A DNA stretch of 64,000 nt, from the IMG/VR virus record IMGVR_UViG_3300033076_001357, positions 1 through 64,000 of that record, one strand, 5' to 3'. Below are positions 5,582-16,034 of the stretch, piece by piece (within the stretch, counting starts at the first letter, position 1; each line of letters begins with the position of its first letter). Source of the stretch: a virus. Lineage: Duplodnaviria; Caudoviricetes. The notes beneath the pieces were generated by a model, which worked only from the letters and a program-made list of their open reading frames with translations, searched no databases and had not been told where the DNA came from. Position numbers and translations under genes: made by a program.

Positions 5582-6076
5582 CTACGCGGGGTGGACGTTG
5601 TACTGGTCGCGCAGCTCGGCCACCAGTTCGTCCAGCAGCTCGTCGTTGTCCTGGTCGCGGTTTTCCCACCGGACCGCGTCCCCGTCCGACAGCCGGACGA
5701 GCGACCCAGCGTCGAAGGTCAGGACGTCCTCGTCGTCGTAGGCGGTGCCCCACGGGGCCTCCGACCACCAGGTGGTCACGTCGAGTACCGGCAGACCGAT
5801 CTCGCTGTGACGGACGTTGACCACCTTGCCGATCTCGGCGTCGCCGTCGTTGATGAACACCAGGTCACCGACGTTGATCGAAGGGTCGTGGACCACCGCC
5901 TTGATGTCCCGGGCGCTGTGCCCGGGCTTGCTGGCGCGGTGACCGAAGAGGACTTCGATGGTGTGTCGCACGAACTCGGTGGGGTCCATTCCCATCTCGT
6001 CGGCGAGGGTGAGGAGCGTCTCGGCGGTCCCGCCGGAGACGGCGATGCGCATCTGACGCTTCGGGCTGTCGGTCAC
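5582..6076 (-). CDS. RHH/CopG-like N-terminus plus SH3-like C-terminal domain
   Basis: MRIAVSGGTAETLLTLADEMGMDPTEFVR; VGDLVFI..IGKVV; GGAGG RBS. Confidence 0.6.
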   Translation of the reverse strand: MTDSPKRQMRIAVSGGTAETLLTLADEMGMDPTEFVRHTIEVLFGHRASKPGHSARDIKAVVHDPSINVGDLVFINDGDAEIGKVVNVRHSEIGLPVLDVTTWWSEAPWGTAYDDEDVLTFDAGSLVRLSDGDAVRWENRDQDNDELLDELVAELRDQYNVHPA

Positions 6077-6130
6077 TGTTACCTCCGGGCTGGAGGGGCG
6101 CCGCCGGTAGCGGCGCCCCGTTGTGATTCC

Positions 6131-6160
6131 ACCCTACCACGGGGGTTTCCCCCCGCGCAA
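6131..6160 (-). promoter_or_regulatory. Promoter P10 (TTGCGC-18-TAGGGT)
   Basis: Consensus match. Confidence 0.7.
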
Positions 6161-6445
6161 TCAGGGGGCCGACTCGACCTGAACGTTCGAGGGCACCCAG
6201 AACGACCAGCTGAGGCTGGCCCACCCGACGTGGTGGTGGTCCGGGTTGCTGACCTGAGAGGCGCTCTCGACGTCGCCGAGCAGCTCCGTAGGCACCAGGT
6301 ACCTGGCGAAAGCCGACCTCGACTTGTCCGTCGCTTCGACGAGAACCGTCGTCAGCCAGCTGTCCGACTGCGACACGAAACCGATCAGTGACCGTCCGTG
6401 GTAGGAGAAGCTGACGGTCTCGCCCTTCTTGAACTCAGTCTTCAC
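6161..6445 (-). CDS. Small SH3-like beta-barrel protein
   Basis: FKKGETVSF...LIGFVS; AAGGAG RBS. Confidence 0.6.
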   Translation of the reverse strand: MKTEFKKGETVSFSYHGRSLIGFVSQSDSWLTTVLVEATDKSRSAFARYLVPTELLGDVESASQVSNPDHHHVGWASLSWSFWVPSNVQVESAP

Positions 6446-6480
6446 GCGGCGTAGTCTCCTTACTTCGAGTGGTGATGGAG

Positions 6481-6657
6481 TCAGTCGACCTTGGTGACGC
6501 TGGACGGGTGCCAGATGTCACGTCGGGCGAACGGCGCGTTACGCTTCGCTGACTCGTCGTCGAGGATGATCTCGACGCCAAGGTCAGTGTCGGACTCGAC
6601 CACGCCCGACAACCGGCCCTCATCGATGTGAGCTTTGTCACCCTTGGTGAACTTCAC
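6481..6657 (-). CDS. Small SH3/KOW-like protein VKFTKGDKAHID...
   Basis: CAGGAGG RBS, GTG start, under promoter P11. Confidence 0.6.
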   Translation of the reverse strand: MKFTKGDKAHIDEGRLSGVVESDTDLGVEIILDDESAKRNAPFARRDIWHPSSVTKVD

Positions 6658-6686
6658 GGGGGTCCTCCTGTGTCTCTGGTACCGCC

Positions 6687-6716
6687 ATTCTAGCACAACG
6701 GTTTCCCGCCGGGAAA
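6687..6716 (-). promoter_or_regulatory. Promoter P11 (TTTCCC-18-TAGAAT)
   Basis: Consensus spacer (GAAAC, TG) and -10. Confidence 0.65.
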
Positions 6717-6893
6717 ATGGCTTCAAGGCGGGTCCTCCGCGCCCGGGCCACGGGCTCGGGAAAGCGCCGCAGGCCCGGTTGACGGCAGACACGGACCCGA
6801 GGGCCGGGACGGGGTCTTCCGCCGCCTGAGAGAGCCGCCCCGGTACTGAGCGCCGGAGACCCCCTGTACGGTTGAGGAAGACCCCGTCCTGTG

Positions 6894-8288
6894 TCACGAC
6901 GGGGTATCCCAGGACAGCGGCGTCCTGGTCCGGTACTCCAGAGACTCTATCTGCAGCCACAGGTGGCCGGTTCGCGGCTTCAGCTGAAGCGTCATCCGGG
7001 CCCAGTTGGGCCGTTCCAGCGACCCGACCCCGCTGAACTCGGCGCTCCGGGCGGTTCGTGGCAGCGTCCACTTCAGACCCTCGCCCGTTTCCTCGGCTGC
7101 GGCCACCGCTCGCCTCACCAGCCGCCACGCGGTCTCGGTCTCGACCCCCTGGTCCTGCAGCCAGGTCAGCGCCGCCGCAGCTTCGGCTCGGTTCCTGGCC
7201 GTCTCCAGGTTCCGCTCCATCGCCTCCTTGTCTATTCCCATCTGCCGTATCAGGTTGGTACACTTGATGGCGGCCCACTGTGCCAGGGTTGTTGCGGTCG
7301 GCACCACCACTCGCTCCACCGAGCTGTGGCTTATGTCCCGTTCACCCCACAACACCACCCCACTTTGCACAGTTGACCCCATTCCCTTTACTATGTTATA
7401 CAGCCCTATCATTTGCTCTGCGGTTACAGGGTTTGACTTATGGGGCATCGAGCTTGAGCCCCATTGACTGCACTGGTCGAAGTTTTCCCTTATTTCGTCG
7501 ATGCCGCTCTGGGCTCCCAGCCTCACCTCGTTGGCCACCGCTGCCGCTGCCGCCGCCACGCCCTCGCAGCCCCACACCATCTCGGCCACCAGGTCCCGGC
7601 TCACCACCTGCAGGCTGCTGTCCGCCGCCCTCATCCCCAGCAGCTTGGCGAATTCCAGCTCTTCCCCCCGGCTTATTCTCTTGTAGTCTCCCACCGGTCC
7701 GCTGAGCTTCACCCTCCCCACTTCCCTTGTCGCCCGTGCAAGGCGCTGGGTCGCCCTCTCGGCCATCAGCGCCTTGTCCGCCAGCCAGTGGCCCAGCGTC
7801 GACTCCTCCGCCCACTGGCCGTGGGTCCGGGCCACCCGCCGGGTCTCGCGGTTCTTCATCGCCGCCCTGGCCAGCTCCCCCGTCAGCTCCCACGCCGCCC
7901 GGGTCACCAGCTTCCCCGCCAGCCGCCACCTTATCGCGTTGGCGCTGTCCACCAGGTCGCTTGAGGTCATCCCCCGGTGCACCGCCGCCAGCGCCAGCGC
8001 CCCCGCGCGGCCTCCCCCCGCGCGGCCTCCCCCCGCGCGGCCTTCGGCCGCGAGGGCGATGTTCCTGCGCCAGCAGTTCAGGAACGCCACCACGTCGTGA
8101 CGGGTCCGGGCCTCCTCGTCGGCCACCTCCCGCTCGGTCGGCACCGCCGCCGTTCTCATCACTTCCAGCGCCTTCTCGTCCAGCCCCTGGGCCTGGGCCG
8201 CCGCCGTCTCCACCCTCGCCCACAGCCGGTACTGGGCTCGGGTCGACCACAGCTCTTCCATCTCGGACGTCTGGTACCTGGATATCAC
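6894..8288 (-). CDS. purB: Adenylosuccinate lyase (fumarase/ASL superfamily), phage-encoded
   Basis: MISRY..EM..LWS; TRHDVVAF; HRGMTSSD; RTHGQ; KLSGPVG; QVVSRD; GSSSMPHKSNP; ERDISHSSVER. Confidence 0.93.
   Translation of the reverse strand: MISRYQTSEMEELWSTRAQYRLWARVETAAAQAQGLDEKALEVMRTAAVPTEREVADEEARTRHDVVAFLNCWRRNIALAAEGRAGGGRAGGGRAGALALAAVHRGMTSSDLVDSANAIRWRLAGKLVTRAAWELTGELARAAMKNRETRRVARTHGQWAEESTLGHWLADKALMAERATQRLARATREVGRVKLSGPVGDYKRISRGEELEFAKLLGMRAADSSLQVVSRDLVAEMVWGCEGVAAAAAAVANEVRLGAQSGIDEIRENFDQCSQWGSSSMPHKSNPVTAEQMIGLYNIVKGMGSTVQSGVVLWGERDISHSSVERVVVPTATTLAQWAAIKCTNLIRQMGIDKEAMERNLETARNRAEAAAALTWLQDQGVETETAWRLVRRAVAAAEETGEGLKWTLPRTARSAEFSGVGSLERPNWARMTLQLKPRTGHLWLQIESLEYRTRTPLSWDTPS
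8001..8043. repeat. 15-bp tandem repeat (~3 units) inside purB encoding GRAGG repeats
   Basis: ccccgcgcggcctcc units; in frame. Confidence 0.8.
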
Positions 8289-8361
8289 AGTTTCCCTCTT
8301 CTCTTCTCTCTCCTGGCTACGCCGACGGCCCCGGGGTTCTCCCCCGGGGCCGTCGTCCTTC

Positions 8362-9291
8362 TCAGTTCCGGCCGCTGGATCCGAAGCCGTTGCTACCGCG
8401 CGGCTTGGGCCGCACCCGGCCCCACGCCGCCTTCCCCGCCCCCACGGCGGGCAGCAGCACCAGCTGCACCAGCCGGTCGCCCTCCTTCACCATGACGCCC
8501 GTCTTGGTGGGGTTGTGGACGCTGGCGAACAGCTCGCCGCTGTATCCTTCGTCGATCACTCCCGGCGTCACGTCCAGCCCGAGCTTGAACTTGGTGGAGC
8601 TGCGGCCGGTCACCAGCCCCCAGTACCCGTCGGGGATGTCCACCGCCACCCCGCAGTTGACGTAGGTGGTCTTGCCGGGGGGCAGCCACGTGTCCTTCGA
8701 CGTGAACAGGTCGAAGCCCGCGTCGGTCTCGTAGGCCCTCTCGGGCAGCCGGGCGTTCTCCGCCTTCTTCTCGAACACGATAGCGCCCCCGCGCGCGGGC
8801 TCGACCGCTTCCTTCAGCGCCCTGGCGAACGCGGTTCCCCGGTCGGCCGCCGTCGAGCCCCTGCGGGGCGCGGGCTCGGCCAGCTCCCGCACCGTGTCGC
8901 GCAGCCACTGCGCTCCCGACCGCACCCCGGGGCCGTCCAGCGGCACCTCGCGGAAGTTGTCGTTCATCTTCCAGTTGTCGATCAGCATGCTGACTTCCAG
9001 GTCGGTGGCCAGCGCCACCGGCTTACCGTTGTCCACGGCCCACTGGATCTCGATCGGCACGCCGATGCTGGGCACGCCATGCTTCAGCACCGCCATCACT
9101 CCGTCGGCCTCCCGCAGCGCCAGCCGGTTGATGGCCTGGCCGATACCGGCCGGGTCGCCGCCGCTGTCGAACGCCAGGGCGGGCCGGAACACCGTGGCTC
9201 CCGCCTCGACCAGCGTGGCGCTGGCCAGCTCGGCCATCCGCTTGGACCTCTCGTCGGCCTGGTCTATCGGCTGCGCCAGGTAGATCAACAT
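8362..9291 (-). CDS. dut: Fusion: NDT/DNPH1(Rcl)-like N-glycosidase plus trimeric dUTPase
   Basis: N-term IYLAQP...ADGV...SIGVPIEIQWA...SMLI; C-term AGFDL, GRSS, GVIDEGYSGE, GDRLVQL, RGSNGFGSSG; start at MLIYL with AAGGA RBS. Confidence 0.85.
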   Translation of the reverse strand: MLIYLAQPIDQADERSKRMAELASATLVEAGATVFRPALAFDSGGDPAGIGQAINRLALREADGVMAVLKHGVPSIGVPIEIQWAVDNGKPVALATDLEVSMLIDNWKMNDNFREVPLDGPGVRSGAQWLRDTVRELAEPAPRRGSTAADRGTAFARALKEAVEPARGGAIVFEKKAENARLPERAYETDAGFDLFTSKDTWLPPGKTTYVNCGVAVDIPDGYWGLVTGRSSTKFKLGLDVTPGVIDEGYSGELFASVHNPTKTGVMVKEGDRLVQLVLLPAVGAGKAAWGRVRPKPRGSNGFGSSGRN

Positions 9292-9368
9292 CGGTAACCG
9301 TCCTTTCGGCTCCCGCCTTCGGCGGGGGTGAGGGGGGCTCCCGCCTTCGGCGGCGGGAGCCGGGGGGG

Positions 9369-9809
9369 TCAGCGGGTCCGGGCGCCGACCGCGCCGACCA
9401 CGGCGGCCACCGCTTCGAAGGTGTGGTGCCACGCCTGGTCCAGGCAGTACGCGCCGTTCATCCCGTGGTCGGCGAGCCGGACGAACACGCCCTTGCCGGT
9501 CAGGTCGGCCAGCCTCTTCAGCGGCGTCCGCCGGTCGGCCACGTAGTGGGTCACCGCCGACAGCGCCAGCGCGGCGGTCAGCGCCCTACCGTTCAGCCGG
9601 ATCCCGCTGGCCCGGCTGGCGGCCATCAGCGCCACCGCCTGGGTGGCGGTGTAGCTGGCGACGTGGGCTGCGCACGCCTTCCGGCCGTCGCCGCCGTTGG
9701 TGCCCTTCACCCGGGCCTGCCGGTCGGTCTGGATCCAGTGGTCGGCCAGGTCGGCGGCCGTCCTGAGCGCCGCGTAGTTCAGCGCCGTCACTCCGGGTTC
9801 CACGGTCAT
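9369..9809 (-). CDS. DUF3307-like His-rich membrane protein
   Basis: ADHWIQTD.QA..KG; HVASYT; SAVTHYVADRR; DQAWHH. Confidence 0.7.
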   Translation of the reverse strand: MTVEPGVTALNYAALRTAADLADHWIQTDRQARVKGTNGGDGRKACAAHVASYTATQAVALMAASRASGIRLNGRALTAALALSAVTHYVADRRTPLKRLADLTGKGVFVRLADHGMNGAYCLDQAWHHTFEAVAAVVGAVGARTR

Positions 9810-9869
9810 CGTATCTCGTCCTTCGGGGGTCGGGGGCTGCCGCCGGGGCTTTCCCCCGCGACAACCCCC

Positions 9870-9899
9870 ATTGTACCACGGAAGTTCCCTACTGGGAAA
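9870..9899 (-). promoter_or_regulatory. Promoter P12 (TTTCCC-18-TACAAT) upstream of DUF3307-dut fusion-purB
   Basis: Consensus match. Confidence 0.65.
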
Positions 9900-10280
9900 C
9901 TAGCCCTCGTCGTCCGGCCAGCCGCCCGCCGCCCGGATCCGACGGCTCATCATCCCGTACGCGACCAGATCGGTCAGCGTGTCCTCCTTCGGCCGCTCCC
10001 CGCGCATCACCGCGTCGGTCCACCTCTCCATCTTCTGGACCGCGTTGATCCAGCAGCCCAGTTCCTGGGCCTCCTCGCTGCTGATCTCTTCCCGGCCGCT
10101 GAGCCGGGCGATCTTGCGGCCCAGCTGCTCCAGCGAGTTCGACCCGTAGGTGACCGCCTTCACGGCCACCATCCCGATGTCGTCGGTGGCCGTGCTCAGC
10201 CACCACTCGCGCAGCCCCTCGGCCCTCGCCGCGCGCGCGGCGAGGGCCTCACCGCTCAGCACCCATCTTTCGTGAGACAT
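9900..10280 (-). CDS. All-alpha NTP pyrophosphatase-like protein (MazG/MazZ/DUF1599-like)
   Basis: KAVTYG...QKMERW...EDTLTDLVAYGMM pattern; adjacent to purZ. Confidence 0.65.
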   Translation of the reverse strand: MSHERWVLSGEALAARAARAEGLREWWLSTATDDIGMVAVKAVTYGSNSLEQLGRKIARLSGREEISSEEAQELGCWINAVQKMERWTDAVMRGERPKEDTLTDLVAYGMMSRRIRAAGGWPDDEG

Positions 10281-10304
10281 CGTGTGACGCGTCCTCTCTC
10301 TGAT

Positions 10305-11432
10305 CTAGATGAACACTCCGGTCACCGGGCTGGTGCCGACGAACCGCACCCGGGCCCCGGTCTCGGTCTCCCGCTCGTCCAGCCACTCGGTGGCCCCTTC
10401 GCTCAGCTCCCGCAGCCCCCTGGCCCCCATGACCTCGGGGAACTGCTGGTCCAGCATGGTCACCGCCAGGTTGACCCTGCTGCCCCCGTTCGCCTGCACC
10501 GCCCGCCTCACCAGCTCGGAGTCCCAGGCGCCGACCCGCCGGACCTTCTGGGTAACTGTGGTGCGTTCCTCCTTCAGCCCCAGCTCCCCCCAGCTGGTCT
10601 CCCCCTTCATCGGCCCGCTGTTGCCCGCCACCCGGATCGGTCGGGTCCGGCACGCCAGCCACACCTCGAACTCTCCCACCGAGGGGTGCCAGGGGCTCAG
10701 TCCTGCCTGGGCCAGGAAGTCGATGGCACGGCAGTCGCCCGACGTGCTGTACGGGTACTCCCCAGCGTGCAGCCCCAGACCGAACCCCTGGGTGCCCTCG
10801 ATCAGCACCGTGGCTCCGTCCTCCAGCGCCCCGTACATCAGTCCGGCCGTGTCCGCCTCCCCCCGGACCACCTGGCCCCACAGCTTGGCCGTCCTCATCA
10901 CCCGGTCGGCCCGGGCCGCTCCGATCCCCTTGGCGGTGGACCCGAGACGGGCGGTCATCCCCAGCTCCCGCTCCTGGAGGACGTGCTTGTGGTCCAGCCA
11001 GGTGGCCTGACTGTCGACCGTCAGCCGCTCGGCGACCCGGTACCCGGCGCTGGACAGCGCCGCCAGCTCCTCGTTCAGCGTGTTGATGCTGACCTCGCTC
11101 CCGGCGGCGATCACCAGCCGGGCCGTCTCGTTGGCCACCGCCGCCACCGGCACCTGGCGAAGCTTCCACGGGTGGCCGATGAATTCGCCGTTGAAGTAGT
11201 GGTCGTCGACCGGCTCGCTTCCCCACAGTCCCTCGGCGGGGACGTGGCCGATCGCGGCCCCACACCACTTCGGGCACCGGCCGTGGACGATGTGGCCAGC
11301 GTTCGGGCCACCGACCCTCACTCCCACCGTCGCGCCGCTGACGCGGTCGGGGTTCAGCAGCTGGGCGCTGACGTGGCCCTTACCGCAGCTTCCGTACATC
11401 GCGTCGCTGACGACGATCAGCCTACCGGACAT
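10305..11432 (-). CDS. purZ: PurZ0-type N6-succino-2-amino-2'-deoxyadenylate synthase (PurA paralog)
   Basis: DAMYGSCGKG (Ser at the PurA catalytic Asp position), GPNAGH, GSTAKGIG, EGTQG, YPYSTS, RVAGNSGP, ERTTVTQKVRRVG, TMLD. Confidence 0.9.
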   Translation of the reverse strand: MSGRLIVVSDAMYGSCGKGHVSAQLLNPDRVSGATVGVRVGGPNAGHIVHGRCPKWCGAAIGHVPAEGLWGSEPVDDHYFNGEFIGHPWKLRQVPVAAVANETARLVIAAGSEVSINTLNEELAALSSAGYRVAERLTVDSQATWLDHKHVLQERELGMTARLGSTAKGIGAARADRVMRTAKLWGQVVRGEADTAGLMYGALEDGATVLIEGTQGFGLGLHAGEYPYSTSGDCRAIDFLAQAGLSPWHPSVGEFEVWLACRTRPIRVAGNSGPMKGETSWGELGLKEERTTVTQKVRRVGAWDSELVRRAVQANGGSRVNLAVTMLDQQFPEVMGARGLRELSEGATEWLDERETETGARVRFVGTSPVTGVFI

Positions 11433-11494
11433 TTTTCCTCTTTCCCGTTCTGTGGACGGCCCCCGGGTCCCGCCCGGGACCCGGGGGCGGGGGT

Positions 11495-11683
11495 TCAGCG
11501 GCCCTCGATCAGGGCCAGCGCCTCGGCGTCGTCGGCCGGGACCTGCAGGCCCCGGGGGGTCGGCTTGGTCGTCGGCCGGGGCCGGGGGGTCCCGGTGCGG
11601 GGCCGGGTCAGTGGCGGGTCGGTCTCGGTCCTCATCTCGGGTCCGGGGTCGGGTCCCGGCTTCCTTCCACCGAACAGCGTCAT
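11495..11683 (-). CDS. Small Pro/Thr-rich hypothetical protein
   Basis: GAGG RBS; first gene after promoter P13. Confidence 0.5.
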   Translation of the reverse strand: MTLFGGRKPGPDPGPEMRTETDPPLTRPRTGTPRPRPTTKPTPRGLQVPADDAEALALIEGR

Positions 11684-11713
11684 CGCGGCGGATCCTCTCT
11701 CCGTTGTTACTCC

Positions 11714-11743
11714 ATTATACCACCGGGCTTTCCCCCGGCGCAA
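11714..11743 (-). promoter_or_regulatory. Promoter P13 (TTGCGC-18-TATAAT) upstream of purZ
   Basis: Perfect -10 with TG extension. Confidence 0.8.
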
Positions 11744-12026
11744 GTGGCGCCCAGACCAGCTCGGTCGACCCCCCGTGGCCGTGGATGGCCACCACGTGGT
11801 CCACGGTCTCGAACATCACGGTGGTAGGAGTGTCGCTGAGCCACCTCATCACCACTGTACCGTCCGTGAACTCCACGCCCTCCGCCACCCGCCCGGTCCC
11901 GCTGACCCGGCTGACGTCGACCTTGCGGTCCAGGTAGAACAGCCGGGGCCTGGACCCCTCCGACCGCCCCACCGCCTGGTTCATCCGGTTCGCGTCGTCT
12001 TCCGACAGGATCTCGCTCATCCTCAC
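11715..12026 (-). CDS. Conserved actinophage hypothetical protein
   Basis: DVSRVSGTGRVAEGVEFTDG...W...IHGHGGST pattern. Confidence 0.75.
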   Translation of the reverse strand: MRMSEILSEDDANRMNQAVGRSEGSRPRLFYLDRKVDVSRVSGTGRVAEGVEFTDGTVVMRWLSDTPTTVMFETVDHVVAIHGHGGSTELVWAPLAPGESPVV

Positions 12027-13733: not shown

Positions 13734-16034
13734 TCACTTGTCGGCGGACCAGCGCTCGGGCTCGATGCCGAAGTGCATGGTCCTTCCGCGCACTCCGAAG
13801 TACCGCTCGAACACCTCGTTGCCGATCGCGGACACCCGCTGGGCCTGGGCCCAGCCTTCCGGCGTGTCAGGGTGACGGGTCACCAGCGAGTCGTGGATCT
13901 GCAGCAGCAGGCATCCCGGCAGCTCCCGCTCGACCCGAGTCATCCAGGGGATCATCGCCCTGGCGAGGTTGCCCTGGATGACCTGGTTGACGGCACTGTT
14001 CGTCTTCTCGTTGACCGCGTACCACCGCCGCCAGCCGTCCAGCATCGTCAGGTAGCCGGGACCCCCCTGCCACCTGGTCACCTTCCACTCCGCCTGCTCC
14101 GCCATCACCTTGAATTCGGGGTAGGTGTCGAAGAAGTTGGCGATGGCCTCCCTGATCTCGTTCATCGACATCTTCTGGCCAGAGGCCGCCTCCACCTGCT
14201 CCTTGATGGCCATCACGCCGCCGCCGTACAGGATGCCGAAGGTGGCCCGCTTGGCCGCGTTCCTGAAGTCCTTGAAGAGCGGATGGCTCTCGTCGATCTT
14301 GAAGAACGCCTTCGTGTTCATCCCGTGCAGGTCGAGCCCGGCGTCCAGCGCGTCCCACAGCGACGTGACCCCCGCGATCACCGTCACCACCCGCAGCTCA
14401 CCGGTGGCCAGGTCGTGCTCCGCGTGGAAGTACCCCGGCTCGTTACCGATGAACGCTCGGACCGGCGTGGCCCCATCCGGGATCAGCCGACCGTGAGGTA
14501 TCGCCTGGCACTGCCAGCGACCCACCGCCAGCCGCCCCGACTTCGTGCCACCGGCGGCGTCCGAGGGACGGTCGAAGTCACCCTTGCACTGTTTGTACCG
14601 GGTCCTGATGCGACCGTCCCTACCGGTCCTCATCGCCCAGCCGGTGTACCACTTCGAGTCCGAGTTGCGGTTCTTGGTCCACCGCATCAGCTCGCTGGCC
14701 CACGGCACGCCGTCTTCCACCAGCCGCCTCAGTTCAACGATGTCGAGCCTGGGTTCCCTGGTCTTCTCGGTGCGGTCCAGCGGCTCCAGCCCCAGCCCGT
14801 TTTTACCCCCGCACTCCTCGCAGTCCCTGTCGCAGAAGAACACGCTCCAGTCACCGGCCGCCAGACTCCGGGCCCGGCTGCAGCCGGGCCCGAAGAAGAA
14901 CCTCTTGGCCTGGGCCAGCTTGGACGGATCGAACGGCATCTTCGCCGCCAGCTCGCGGTTGCGCTCCCGCAGCTTCCGCCCCTCGGCCAGCGAGGGCTCG
15001 ACGTCGTACCGCACCCCCCGGCGTTCCATCCGGTACAGGGTGGTACGCAGTTCCATCTCGTCGTCGTACAGCCTCCAGAAGTTCGGCAGCACCGCCCCCT
15101 CCTCCGCCAGCGCGTCCTGGTACTCGGCCAGCCGGAGGGTCAGGTTGGTGTCCTTGGCCGCGTACCGCTTCATCGCCGCCACGGGGTGCCACATCAGCAG
15201 GTCGTACCGCTTGGTCATCCGCACGCCGACCTTGGCCAGCTCCTTGGCCAGCTCCTGGGCCTCCGACCCCTCGTCCTCGCCCCACAGGCGCTTGGCCGTC
15301 TTCTTCAGCGCGGCCGGTTCCAGCGGGTCGATCAGCTGCTTCTGGACCACCAGGGTGCACCGGATCCGCCTCCGTACGTTACCGGGGACGGCCAGCGGCT
15401 CGCCGCTGGGCTCCATCATGTGGAGCCGCTGCGGCTCGCCCAGCCGCCAGGTGCCCGGCTCGCTGTCCGGGTCCCACGCCGCGAATCCCTCGGGCACGCC
15501 CGGGTCGCCACCGGCGCCCGCCCGGAGACCCGCCGCGAACATGGGCATGTCGTGGATGCTGTTGTGCATCACCAGGTTGTCCCGCCGGTCCAGCCAGCCG
15601 ATCAGCGCGGCGTAGTCGCTGGAGGGCAGGTTGACGACGTCCGCCGGGGTGAACGTGGTCCCCAGCAGCTTGGACATCGCCGCCAGGATGCGGGCCTGCT
15701 CCGTCTCGTCGATGACCGCGAAGGTGGCATGTCCGGTCTCGGGGTCGATGTCGGGCCGACCCGGCTTGCCGATCACCGGCCCCTGGTCGAACTGCCAGGC
15801 GTGGTCGGTAATCTCGCCCTCCACCCACCCCCCCTCATCGTCCGGAACCGGCTCGCGGTAGCTGACCGACACCACCGAGATCCTGGCCTCGGGCTGGGGA
15901 GGGTTGTTACCGCTCTTGAACGGCTCCCCGTCCCGGTACAGTCCGGACCCCTCGGTGTCCACGCTGACGAACCACCCGGGGGGCAGCTCCGGCAGCTCCA
16001 CGTCACCCACAACGGTAACGGGCAGCGTGCTCAT
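13734..16034 (-). CDS. polA: Family A DNA polymerase with 3'-5' exonuclease
   Basis: Exo VDTEG, HNSIHD, YAAKD; pol motif A HDLATGELR, motif B RNAAKRATFGILYGGG, motif C QIHDS. Confidence 0.92.
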   Translation of the reverse strand: MSTLPVTVVGDVELPELPPGWFVSVDTEGSGLYRDGEPFKSGNNPPQPEARISVVSVSYREPVPDDEGGWVEGEITDHAWQFDQGPVIGKPGRPDIDPETGHATFAVIDETEQARILAAMSKLLGTTFTPADVVNLPSSDYAALIGWLDRRDNLVMHNSIHDMPMFAAGLRAGAGGDPGVPEGFAAWDPDSEPGTWRLGEPQRLHMMEPSGEPLAVPGNVRRRIRCTLVVQKQLIDPLEPAALKKTAKRLWGEDEGSEAQELAKELAKVGVRMTKRYDLLMWHPVAAMKRYAAKDTNLTLRLAEYQDALAEEGAVLPNFWRLYDDEMELRTTLYRMERRGVRYDVEPSLAEGRKLRERNRELAAKMPFDPSKLAQAKRFFFGPGCSRARSLAAGDWSVFFCDRDCEECGGKNGLGLEPLDRTEKTREPRLDIVELRRLVEDGVPWASELMRWTKNRNSDSKWYTGWAMRTGRDGRIRTRYKQCKGDFDRPSDAAGGTKSGRLAVGRWQCQAIPHGRLIPDGATPVRAFIGNEPGYFHAEHDLATGELRVVTVIAGVTSLWDALDAGLDLHGMNTKAFFKIDESHPLFKDFRNAAKRATFGILYGGGVMAIKEQVEAASGQKMSMNEIREAIANFFDTYPEFKVMAEQAEWKVTRWQGGPGYLTMLDGWRRWYAVNEKTNSAVNQVIQGNLARAMIPWMTRVERELPGCLLLQIHDSLVTRHPDTPEGWAQAQRVSAIGNEVFERYFGVRGRTMHFGIEPERWSADK

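Follow-up and report, generated by a model that had tools for sequence, protein, structure and literature searches.

Does a phage that is predicted to carry 2-aminoadenine (Z) in place of adenine leave the second step of Z synthesis to its host, or does it bring an enzyme of its own? The question is raised by a stretch of 64,000 nucleotides (hereafter the window), which makes up the first 64 kb of a siphovirus-type genome of 85,119 bp in IMG/VR (IMGVR_UViG_3300033076_001357, 92% complete according to CheckV) and in which a purB-like gene shares a module with purZ, the gene for succino-amino-deoxyadenylate synthase. Judged from its sequence, the gene at 6894-8288 encodes a real, intact and divergent phage adenylosuccinate lyase of a Z-DNA module, of a kind that has already been annotated in other phages. 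We consider it quite likely that the product is an active PurB-family lyase that was captured once from an actinobacterium, has been inherited together with purZ, and handles a step of Z synthesis.

The lyase gene and its active site

A preliminary description of the window had placed a phage adenylosuccinate lyase at 6894-8288, and this was confirmed, since the open reading frame (ORF) is exact on the minus strand and every motif named is found in its translation. The gene and the elements within it are as follows.

6894-8288, minus strand: purB-like gene encoding a 464-amino-acid adenylosuccinate lyase of the Bacillus subtilis/Thermotoga maritima type, with a GTG start, a stop codon at 6894-6896 and a G+C content at third codon positions (GC3) of 0.85
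8286-8298, minus strand: GTG start (8286-8288) and Shine-Dalgarno-like GAGGG site (8294-8298) with a 5-nt gap, read from the sequence
7989-8060, minus strand: lineage-specific loop insertion spanning residues ~77-100, after the His64 helix and before the H104-x-G-x-TSSD motif, from alignments
8000-8043, minus strand: perfect tandem repeat (15 bp x 2.9, 100% matches, score 88) inside the insertion, encoding GRAGG-GRAGG-GRAG
7815-7826, minus strand: T155-H156-G157-Q158, with the catalytic acid His156 and the clade-specific Gln158, from alignments
7428-7460, minus strand: mobile signature loop, G277-SSSMPHKSN-P287, which contains the catalytic Ser (278/279) as well as Lys284 and Asn286, from alignments
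6897-7091, minus strand: divergent C-terminal helical domain, residues ~400-464, in place of ADSL_C, from the frame, relatives and models

The motifs present in the translation are ARTHGQ (including His156), GSSSMPHKSNP (residues 277-287), HRGMTSSD, RHDVVAF and WGERDISHSSVER. Pfam Lyase_1 (PF00206) matches residues 8-297 with 96.1 bits against a cut-off of 27, and the NCBIfam purB model TIGR00928 matches with 244.7 bits (E = 1.6e-72) over model positions 1-399 of 436, the last ~37 positions being unmatched. Because TIGR00928 is the top-scoring family by a wide margin (the next best reaches 105 bits), the protein is a divergent member of PurB and not of another family. Its placement inside PurB, and not with pcaB, argH, fumC or aspA, is also given by the trees, which nest it among actinobacterial PurBs, and by the far lower scores of the other models of the class II fumarase/aspartase superfamily.

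The GTG start at 8288 is supported by the position of the phosphate-binding pair Arg4-Tyr5, which then falls at the aligned PurB positions. The database gene call (P0004) is nine residues shorter (455 amino acids) and fits a start at Met10 (window 8261-8288); it probably begins nine codons late, given that a Met10 start removes the conserved Arg4-Tyr5 pair and that the GTG codon has the GAGGG site.

The AlphaFold2 (AF2) model of the 464-residue protein has a mean predicted local distance difference test score (pLDDT) of 86 and a predicted template modelling (TM) score of 0.84. In Foldseek searches it matches the PurB structures of Bacillus anthracis, Staphylococcus aureus and T. maritima (2PFM, 2X75 and 1C3C) with TM scores of 0.76-0.85, in alignments spanning 455-459 columns of the 464 residues, and the top PDB matches are all adenylosuccinate lyases (E ~1e-52).

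In the S. aureus PurB-AMP complex the phosphate is contacted by Arg4, Tyr5, Asn276, Ser306 and Arg310, the ribose by the Arg67 carbonyl (O2') and by the Asp69 amide and Arg4 (O3'), and the adenine by Thr95 (N1) and by His141 and Gln212 (N6), with His141 serving as catalytic acid and Ser262 as base (PMC2917274). Counterparts are present in the phage lyase as R4, Y5, R63-H64-D65, T108-S109-S110, H156, Q227, S278/S279, K284, N286, E291, R317, S322 and R326; H64/D65 correspond to His68/Asp69 and T108-S109-S110 to Thr93-Ser94-Thr95 of S. aureus PurB, and the sole S. aureus contact lacking a counterpart is Asn276, which aligns to Gln292 by a hand count along the signature loop. In a 188-sequence alignment, 68 viral clade members and 80 cellular PurBs vary little or not at all at these residues: the signature loop is invariant in all members of both groups (68/68 and 80/80), Tyr5 occurs in 148 of 148 aligned PurBs and Arg4 in 147, the remaining one, from phage Ghobes, having Lys. 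All full-length clade members keep the complete active site at ~50% divergence, and only the shortened Ghobes protein departs from it. An active site that stays invariant while about half of the positions differ therefore indicates purifying selection on a working site. The full PurB signatures reported earlier, namely the RTHGQ histidine and the SSSMPHKSNP loop, were thus borne out, and the residues that contact AMP proved to be conserved as well.

The C-terminal region shows an in-frame GC3 of 0.80-0.83 up to the stop codon, its sequence is common to the closest relatives of the lyase, and it is modelled by AF2 as helices with pLDDT values of 72-93. Together with the Foldseek alignments, these data speak for a C-terminal domain that is still there, though diverged. 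A frameshifted or decayed 3' end of the gene was considered and ruled out by the GC3 values, the C-terminus shared with relatives and the modelled fold.

Compared with T. maritima PurB and PDB entry 8JBD, the loop that follows the His64 helix is longer by ~20 residues. AF2 models the insertion as a lengthened helical hairpin (mean pLDDT 67 for residues 81-90), and an insertion of variable sequence, of ~20-30 residues, is found at the same loop in the window lyase and its seven closest relatives. Thus, the GRAGG repeat insertion noticed at first is indeed perfect and in frame, but the insertion itself is not unique, only the triplicated 15-mer being private to this genome. Since the repeat is perfect and lies in an already variable loop, the triplication is probably due to recent slippage and of little consequence.

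The viral clade and its linkage to purZ

Relatives of the lyase were searched for in deposited phage genomes, in a collection of 5.8 billion proteins and in one genome per species for 185,579 species. The best deposited phage matches are from the Streptomyces phages Galactica, Spocter, Keanu and Hiyaa (39-40% identity), and the Gordonia phages Ghobes, Sapo, Frizzle and Archimedes give ~30%. In the large protein collection the nearest sequences are 52%, 49% and 48% identical, each lacking a PF10397 match, and cellular actinobacterial PurBs (435 amino acids, with PF10397) begin at ~40%. Among the representative genomes the best cellular PurB, from a metagenome-assembled genome of an uncultured Actinomycetota, is 39% identical, followed by those of Actinoallomurus, Actinomadura, Streptosporangiales and Parafrankia (36-38%) and of Streptomyces (33-34%).

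Trees were inferred with FastTree (188 rows) and with IQ-TREE under LG+C20 with posterior mean site frequencies (PMSF; 78 rows, Ghobes being left out for its very long branch). In the PMSF tree the PurZ-linked PurBs of actinophage type form one clade of 44 rows (Shimodaira-Hasegawa-like approximate likelihood-ratio support 99), and FastTree agrees; every member of known origin sits on a phage or viral contig. This clade lies inside Actinomycetota, as sister to Streptosporangiales/Frankia PurB (support 100), with Streptomyces PurB next out (98), and the window lyase falls within a subclade of 7-8 members (support 100). The comparison with host PurBs called for in the preliminary description therefore places the lyase in an old viral clade co-inherited with PurZ and not among recent host-like copies. 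A recent copy of a host gene, tried as a separate explanation, is ruled out by the identities to the best cellular match among the representative genomes of 185,579 species and to Streptomyces PurB. The simplest reading of these trees is one old capture from an actinobacterium, which would have been followed by vertical descent in phages, with purB and purZ handed down together across a large group of Z-genome phages of high G+C content.

To place the lyase next to its presumed partner, the surrounding features of the window are listed here.

13734-16034, minus strand: family A DNA polymerase of the replication module (phrog_17, E = 3.6e-70)
10305-11432, minus strand: purZ, succino-amino-deoxyadenylate synthase (NF038379, 306.6 bits, cut-off 300)
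9900-10280, minus strand: small ORF of 126 amino acids directly downstream of purZ, with no Pfam or PHROG match
9369-9809: ORF matching a PHROG annotated as membrane protein
8362-9432, minus strand: dmtZ-dutZ fusion, a nucleoside deoxyribosyltransferase (NDT)-like domain (Pfam Nuc_deoxyrib_tr, 25 bits) joined to a dUTPase (Pfam dUTPase, 89.6 bits)
8327-8351, minus strand: GC-rich hairpin with perfect 10-bp arms and a 5-nt loop, between the dutZ stop codon and the purB ribosome-binding site, read from the sequence

The PurZ product would supply dSMP (succino-2-amino-2'-deoxyadenylate), the presumed substrate of the lyase. The two genes lie 2 kb apart on the same strand, purZ upstream, with the ORFs 9900-10280, 9369-9809 and 8362-9432 between them; the earlier statement that the lyase is next to purZ thus holds for membership in one gene module but not for adjacency. 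Hiyaa, Galactica and a 95.7-kb metagenome contig, on which a 48%-identical relative lies, show the same succession of purZ, small ORF, dmtZ-dutZ and purB.

The linkage extends well beyond these genomes. We screened IMG/VR for PurB relatives, taking the top 80 of 178, and surveyed it separately from the PurZ side with an alignment query, a single-protein PurZ query having matched nothing. Among the PurBs of the window clade, 21 loci have a Ser-P-loop PurZ within 10 kb, and four further records (L007, L024, L034 and L036) carry a PurZ above the NF038379 cut-off elsewhere. Other members lie on incomplete fragments that end before the position at which near-identical relatives have PurZ, one of them inside a PurZ remnant; in one 81%-complete record (L032) no PurZ was found. 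Seen from the other side, PurB is present in 12 of the 20 PurZ records that are at least 90% complete.

Outside the clade the picture differs. More distant viral PurBs, mostly of jumbo phages or proviruses, are paired with PurA-type synthetases or with none. Four PurZ contigs carry PurBs of separate cellular ancestry, which group with Bacillota (L057), with other viral PurBs (L069), with Corallococcus (L075) and with Caldithrix-like sequences (L082), and the PurB-PurZ pairing therefore arose more than once. The L075 contig may represent a provirus or flanking host DNA.

As to the genome itself, PurZ above the curated cut-off and a fusion of the dATP-clearing DmtZ-DutZ type occur together in it, the fusion having the architecture of a characterised counterpart in Arthrobacter phage Wayne (PMC12884076). 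These genes predict an uncultured high-GC phage with Z in place of adenine in its DNA. The G+C content of the window is ~59-75%, nearly all genes are on the minus strand, and the record includes genes for a tape-measure protein, a portal protein, a large terminase, the family A DNA polymerase, a primase-polymerase and a helicase.

Within the module, homologues of ORF 9900-10280 adjoin PurZ in 25 of 85 screened loci (28-59% identity, tblastn), and the ORF seems to be a conserved part of the Z module that has yet to be named. In the dmtZ-dutZ ORF, codons 1-46 (9295-9432) encode a stretch rich in Arg, Pro and Gly (RSGGRRGRRGRRPDPL...) and run into the last part of ORF 9369-9809; the true start is probably Met47, near 9294, where the NDT-like domain begins. 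The hairpin at 8327-8351 could be a terminator or attenuator that separates purB from the genes upstream. A promoter and terminator scan of 6000-11800 gave no usable call at purB; for want of a T tract, it passed over the hairpin. Downstream of purB, two small ORFs show no similarity to each other. At 1044-1517, in the early region, the WYL domain (PF13280, 54 bits) is encoded as a stand-alone protein in which no DNA-binding domain can be recognised.

The proposed reaction, its probable benefit and the rival explanations

Since the phage has an intact adenylosuccinate lyase of its own, it probably carries out the second step of Z synthesis itself. As for substrate, activity and benefit, we infer that the lyase, presumably a homotetramer by analogy with solved PurBs, in which three subunits contribute to each active site, would act after PurZ and convert dSMP to the Z deoxynucleoside monophosphate (dZMP) and fumarate by the usual beta-elimination, in which the base would be Ser278/279 of the mobile loop and the acid His156, and that host kinases would then raise dZMP to the triphosphate (dZTP). 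The likely benefit is one of flux, in that added lyase capacity, independent of host purB expression, would be available for a non-physiological deoxy substrate while the whole deoxyadenosine pool is being replaced. Guanylate kinase and nucleoside-diphosphate kinase families were not found anywhere in the 85-kb record, and host kinases are therefore still needed after dZMP. The suggestion that the gene frees the phage from its host thus applies to one step at most, and it is further narrowed by the PurZ relatives that do without PurB.

Several observations weigh against this reading. The TIGR00928 score lies below the equivalog cut-off of 326.2 bits, and Pfam did not detect ADSL_C (PF10397) in the lyase. 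In the subclade of the lyase, five changes (H159W, P162E, R260Q, H315G and Y388W) occur at positions at least 85% conserved in cellular PurBs, and these could lower activity. No enzymology of any phage PurB was found in the literature. The pairwise distances of PurB rise and fall with those of PurZ (Mantel r = 0.97, 0 of 5000 permutations), as is expected of any two co-inherited genes, and this is no proof of a functional link. Finally, PurB is absent from eight of the 20 near-complete PurZ records (L189, L211, L228, L230, L231, L232, L241 and L242, that is, G050, G052, G058-G061, G065 and G066; 33-77 kb), so that host PurB suffices for many relatives and PurB, at 12 of 20, is frequent but dispensable. 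Its carriage is lineage-dependent and might track host taxa.

A more ambitious reading is that the lyase is specialised for dSMP, its activity on ribo-substrates being lost or weakened and a preference for the 2-amino, 2'-deoxy substrate being brought about by second-shell changes and the loop insertion. We regard this as doubtful, even if there are sequence features that fit it. Immediately after His156-Gly157, Gln158 is found in 65 of 67 viral sequences and in none of 80 cellular ones, all of which, the sister group included, have Ile, Val or Met. PurBs of the E. coli type have the THGQ motif too, so that by itself it would not be new. Pro198, in the SG-x-VG loop (here SGPVG), occurs in 66 of 67 viral and seven of 80 cellular PurBs; the equivalent residue of S. 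aureus PurB positions the N6-binding Gln through its carbonyl (PMC2917274). A further change throughout the clade is Trp73-Arg74, after the His64 helix. All three, which neighbour catalytic elements, originated on the viral clade's stem, and the independently derived PurZ-linked PurB of L082 also has Pro198 and a polar residue at position 158. In addition, PurB outpaces PurZ in evolution (mean p-distance 0.49 versus 0.35). On the other hand, the 2'-OH is contacted by a backbone carbonyl, and the side chains that touch the base, like all first-shell residues, are the same as in cellular PurB. Because the first shell is unchanged and the published pathways assign the dSMP step to host PurB, no new specificity is required. 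The second-shell changes of the clade therefore only hint at tuning, and they make a testable case for it rather than evidence. It is conceivable, if on the whole rather improbable, that the PurZ-linked phage PurBs constitute a distinct subfamily, 'PurB-Z', derived from one actinobacterial capture and retuned by Gln158, Pro198 and Trp73-Arg74 (with the insertion and His315Gly in the subclade), which would prefer the 2-amino-2'-deoxy substrate and have shed its activity on adenylosuccinate or on succinylaminoimidazolecarboxamide ribotide (SAICAR). If so, neither the purine metabolism of the host nor its regulation would bear on Z synthesis in these phages.

Less probable still, and in our view unlikely, is that the gene serves purine metabolism in general, the lyase mainly boosting host conversion of SAICAR to aminoimidazolecarboxamide ribotide and of adenylosuccinate to AMP, so that more IMP/GMP and ATP are available in infection, with dSMP cleavage being no special task of it. 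The PurB of cells is bifunctional (PMC2917274) and the first-shell residues of the phage enzyme are unchanged; many large phages in IMG/VR pair PurB with a PurA-type synthetase or with none; and an extra SAICAR lyase would feed GMP, and hence dGMP, into PurZ. However, the PurB clade of the window is tied to PurZ genomes, the exceptions being incomplete fragments and the 81%-complete record, and no other de novo purine gene turned up among the scanned ORFs. Moreover, DmtZ-DutZ destroys dATP (PMC12884076), which leaves no obvious use for extra flux through the AMP branch.

That a host gene was captured and has since lost its enzyme function, being now a passenger that decays or has no catalytic role, is very improbable, for although the score below the equivalog cut-off, the missing ADSL_C match, the perfect in-frame repeat and the five changes at positions conserved in cells could be taken in this sense, 68 diverged clade members show little or no variation in the active-site residues, GC3 is of coding type to the end of the frame, the C-terminal helices are confidently modelled and conserved among relatives, and the insertion is tolerated in eight lineages.

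Comparison with known systems

The reading of the gene as an active lyase of Z synthesis can be set beside several described systems. The cultured phages Hiyaa and Ghobes already carry an annotated gene of this kind, and at the level of annotation the idea is therefore not new. The Streptomyces phages Hiyaa, Galactica, Keanu and Spocter (genus Hiyaavirus; QJD54022.1) have a 'PurB-like adenylosuccinate lyase' of the same PurB clade and, like the window phage, are high-GC actinophages, of ~80-85 kb; in Galactica the gene order (PurA-like, that is PurZ, an ORF, a dUTPase-type gene, PurB) is that of the window. Their PurBs, of 457-461 amino acids, are only 37-40% identical to the window lyase and differ from it in having neither the loop insertion nor the WGERD (His to Gly) change, and they are known from annotation only.

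Gordonia phage Ghobes encodes gp36, an 'adenylosuccinate lyase' (AOE44413.1; also in Archimedes, Sapo and Frizzle), which FastTree places in the same viral clade. In comparison with the window lyase, the Ghobes-type proteins are shortened to 365-377 amino acids, sit on a very long branch and have THGV, without Gln158. The nucleotide enzymes of Ghobes Z-DNA, DutZ and DmtZ, have been characterised, and the 2026 Nucleic Acids Research paper on Ghobes and Wayne makes no mention of PurB or a lyase (PMC12884076). We found no paper discussing a phage-encoded PurB in a Z phage, although it may be mentioned in the three 2021 Science papers or the 2023 PurZ0 paper. As far as we have seen, the PurB-PurZ pairing is visible in GenBank annotation and has apparently been neither characterised nor discussed.

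Cellular PurBs (1C3C/1C3U, 2PFM, 2X75 and 8JBD) share with the window lyase the fold, the signature loop, the catalytic Ser and His and the nucleotide-contacting residues, and its nearest living cellular relatives are the PurBs of Actinoallomurus, Actinomadura and Parafrankia. It is set apart from them by an identity of at most 39%, by the insertion, by Q158, P198 and W73-R74, by H159W, R260Q, H315G and Y388W, and by the lack of a Pfam ADSL_C match. If the lyase outperforms cellular PurB on dSMP, it would complete the phage-encoded part of the Z pathway and would be a useful part for Z-DNA production in heterologous hosts or in vitro.

The published pathway of phages phiVC8, S-2L and SH-Ab 15497 consists of PurZ or PurZ0, host PurB and host kinases, and the accessible literature up to February 2026 agrees with the earlier statement that host PurB performs the conversion of dSMP to dZMP there. 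The reaction slot, dSMP to dZMP and fumarate, would be the same in the window phage. In those systems the lyase is that of the host, whereas the window phage and 12 of 20 near-complete relatives bring their own, and this phage lyase belongs to an old viral clade with a sequence signature of its own.

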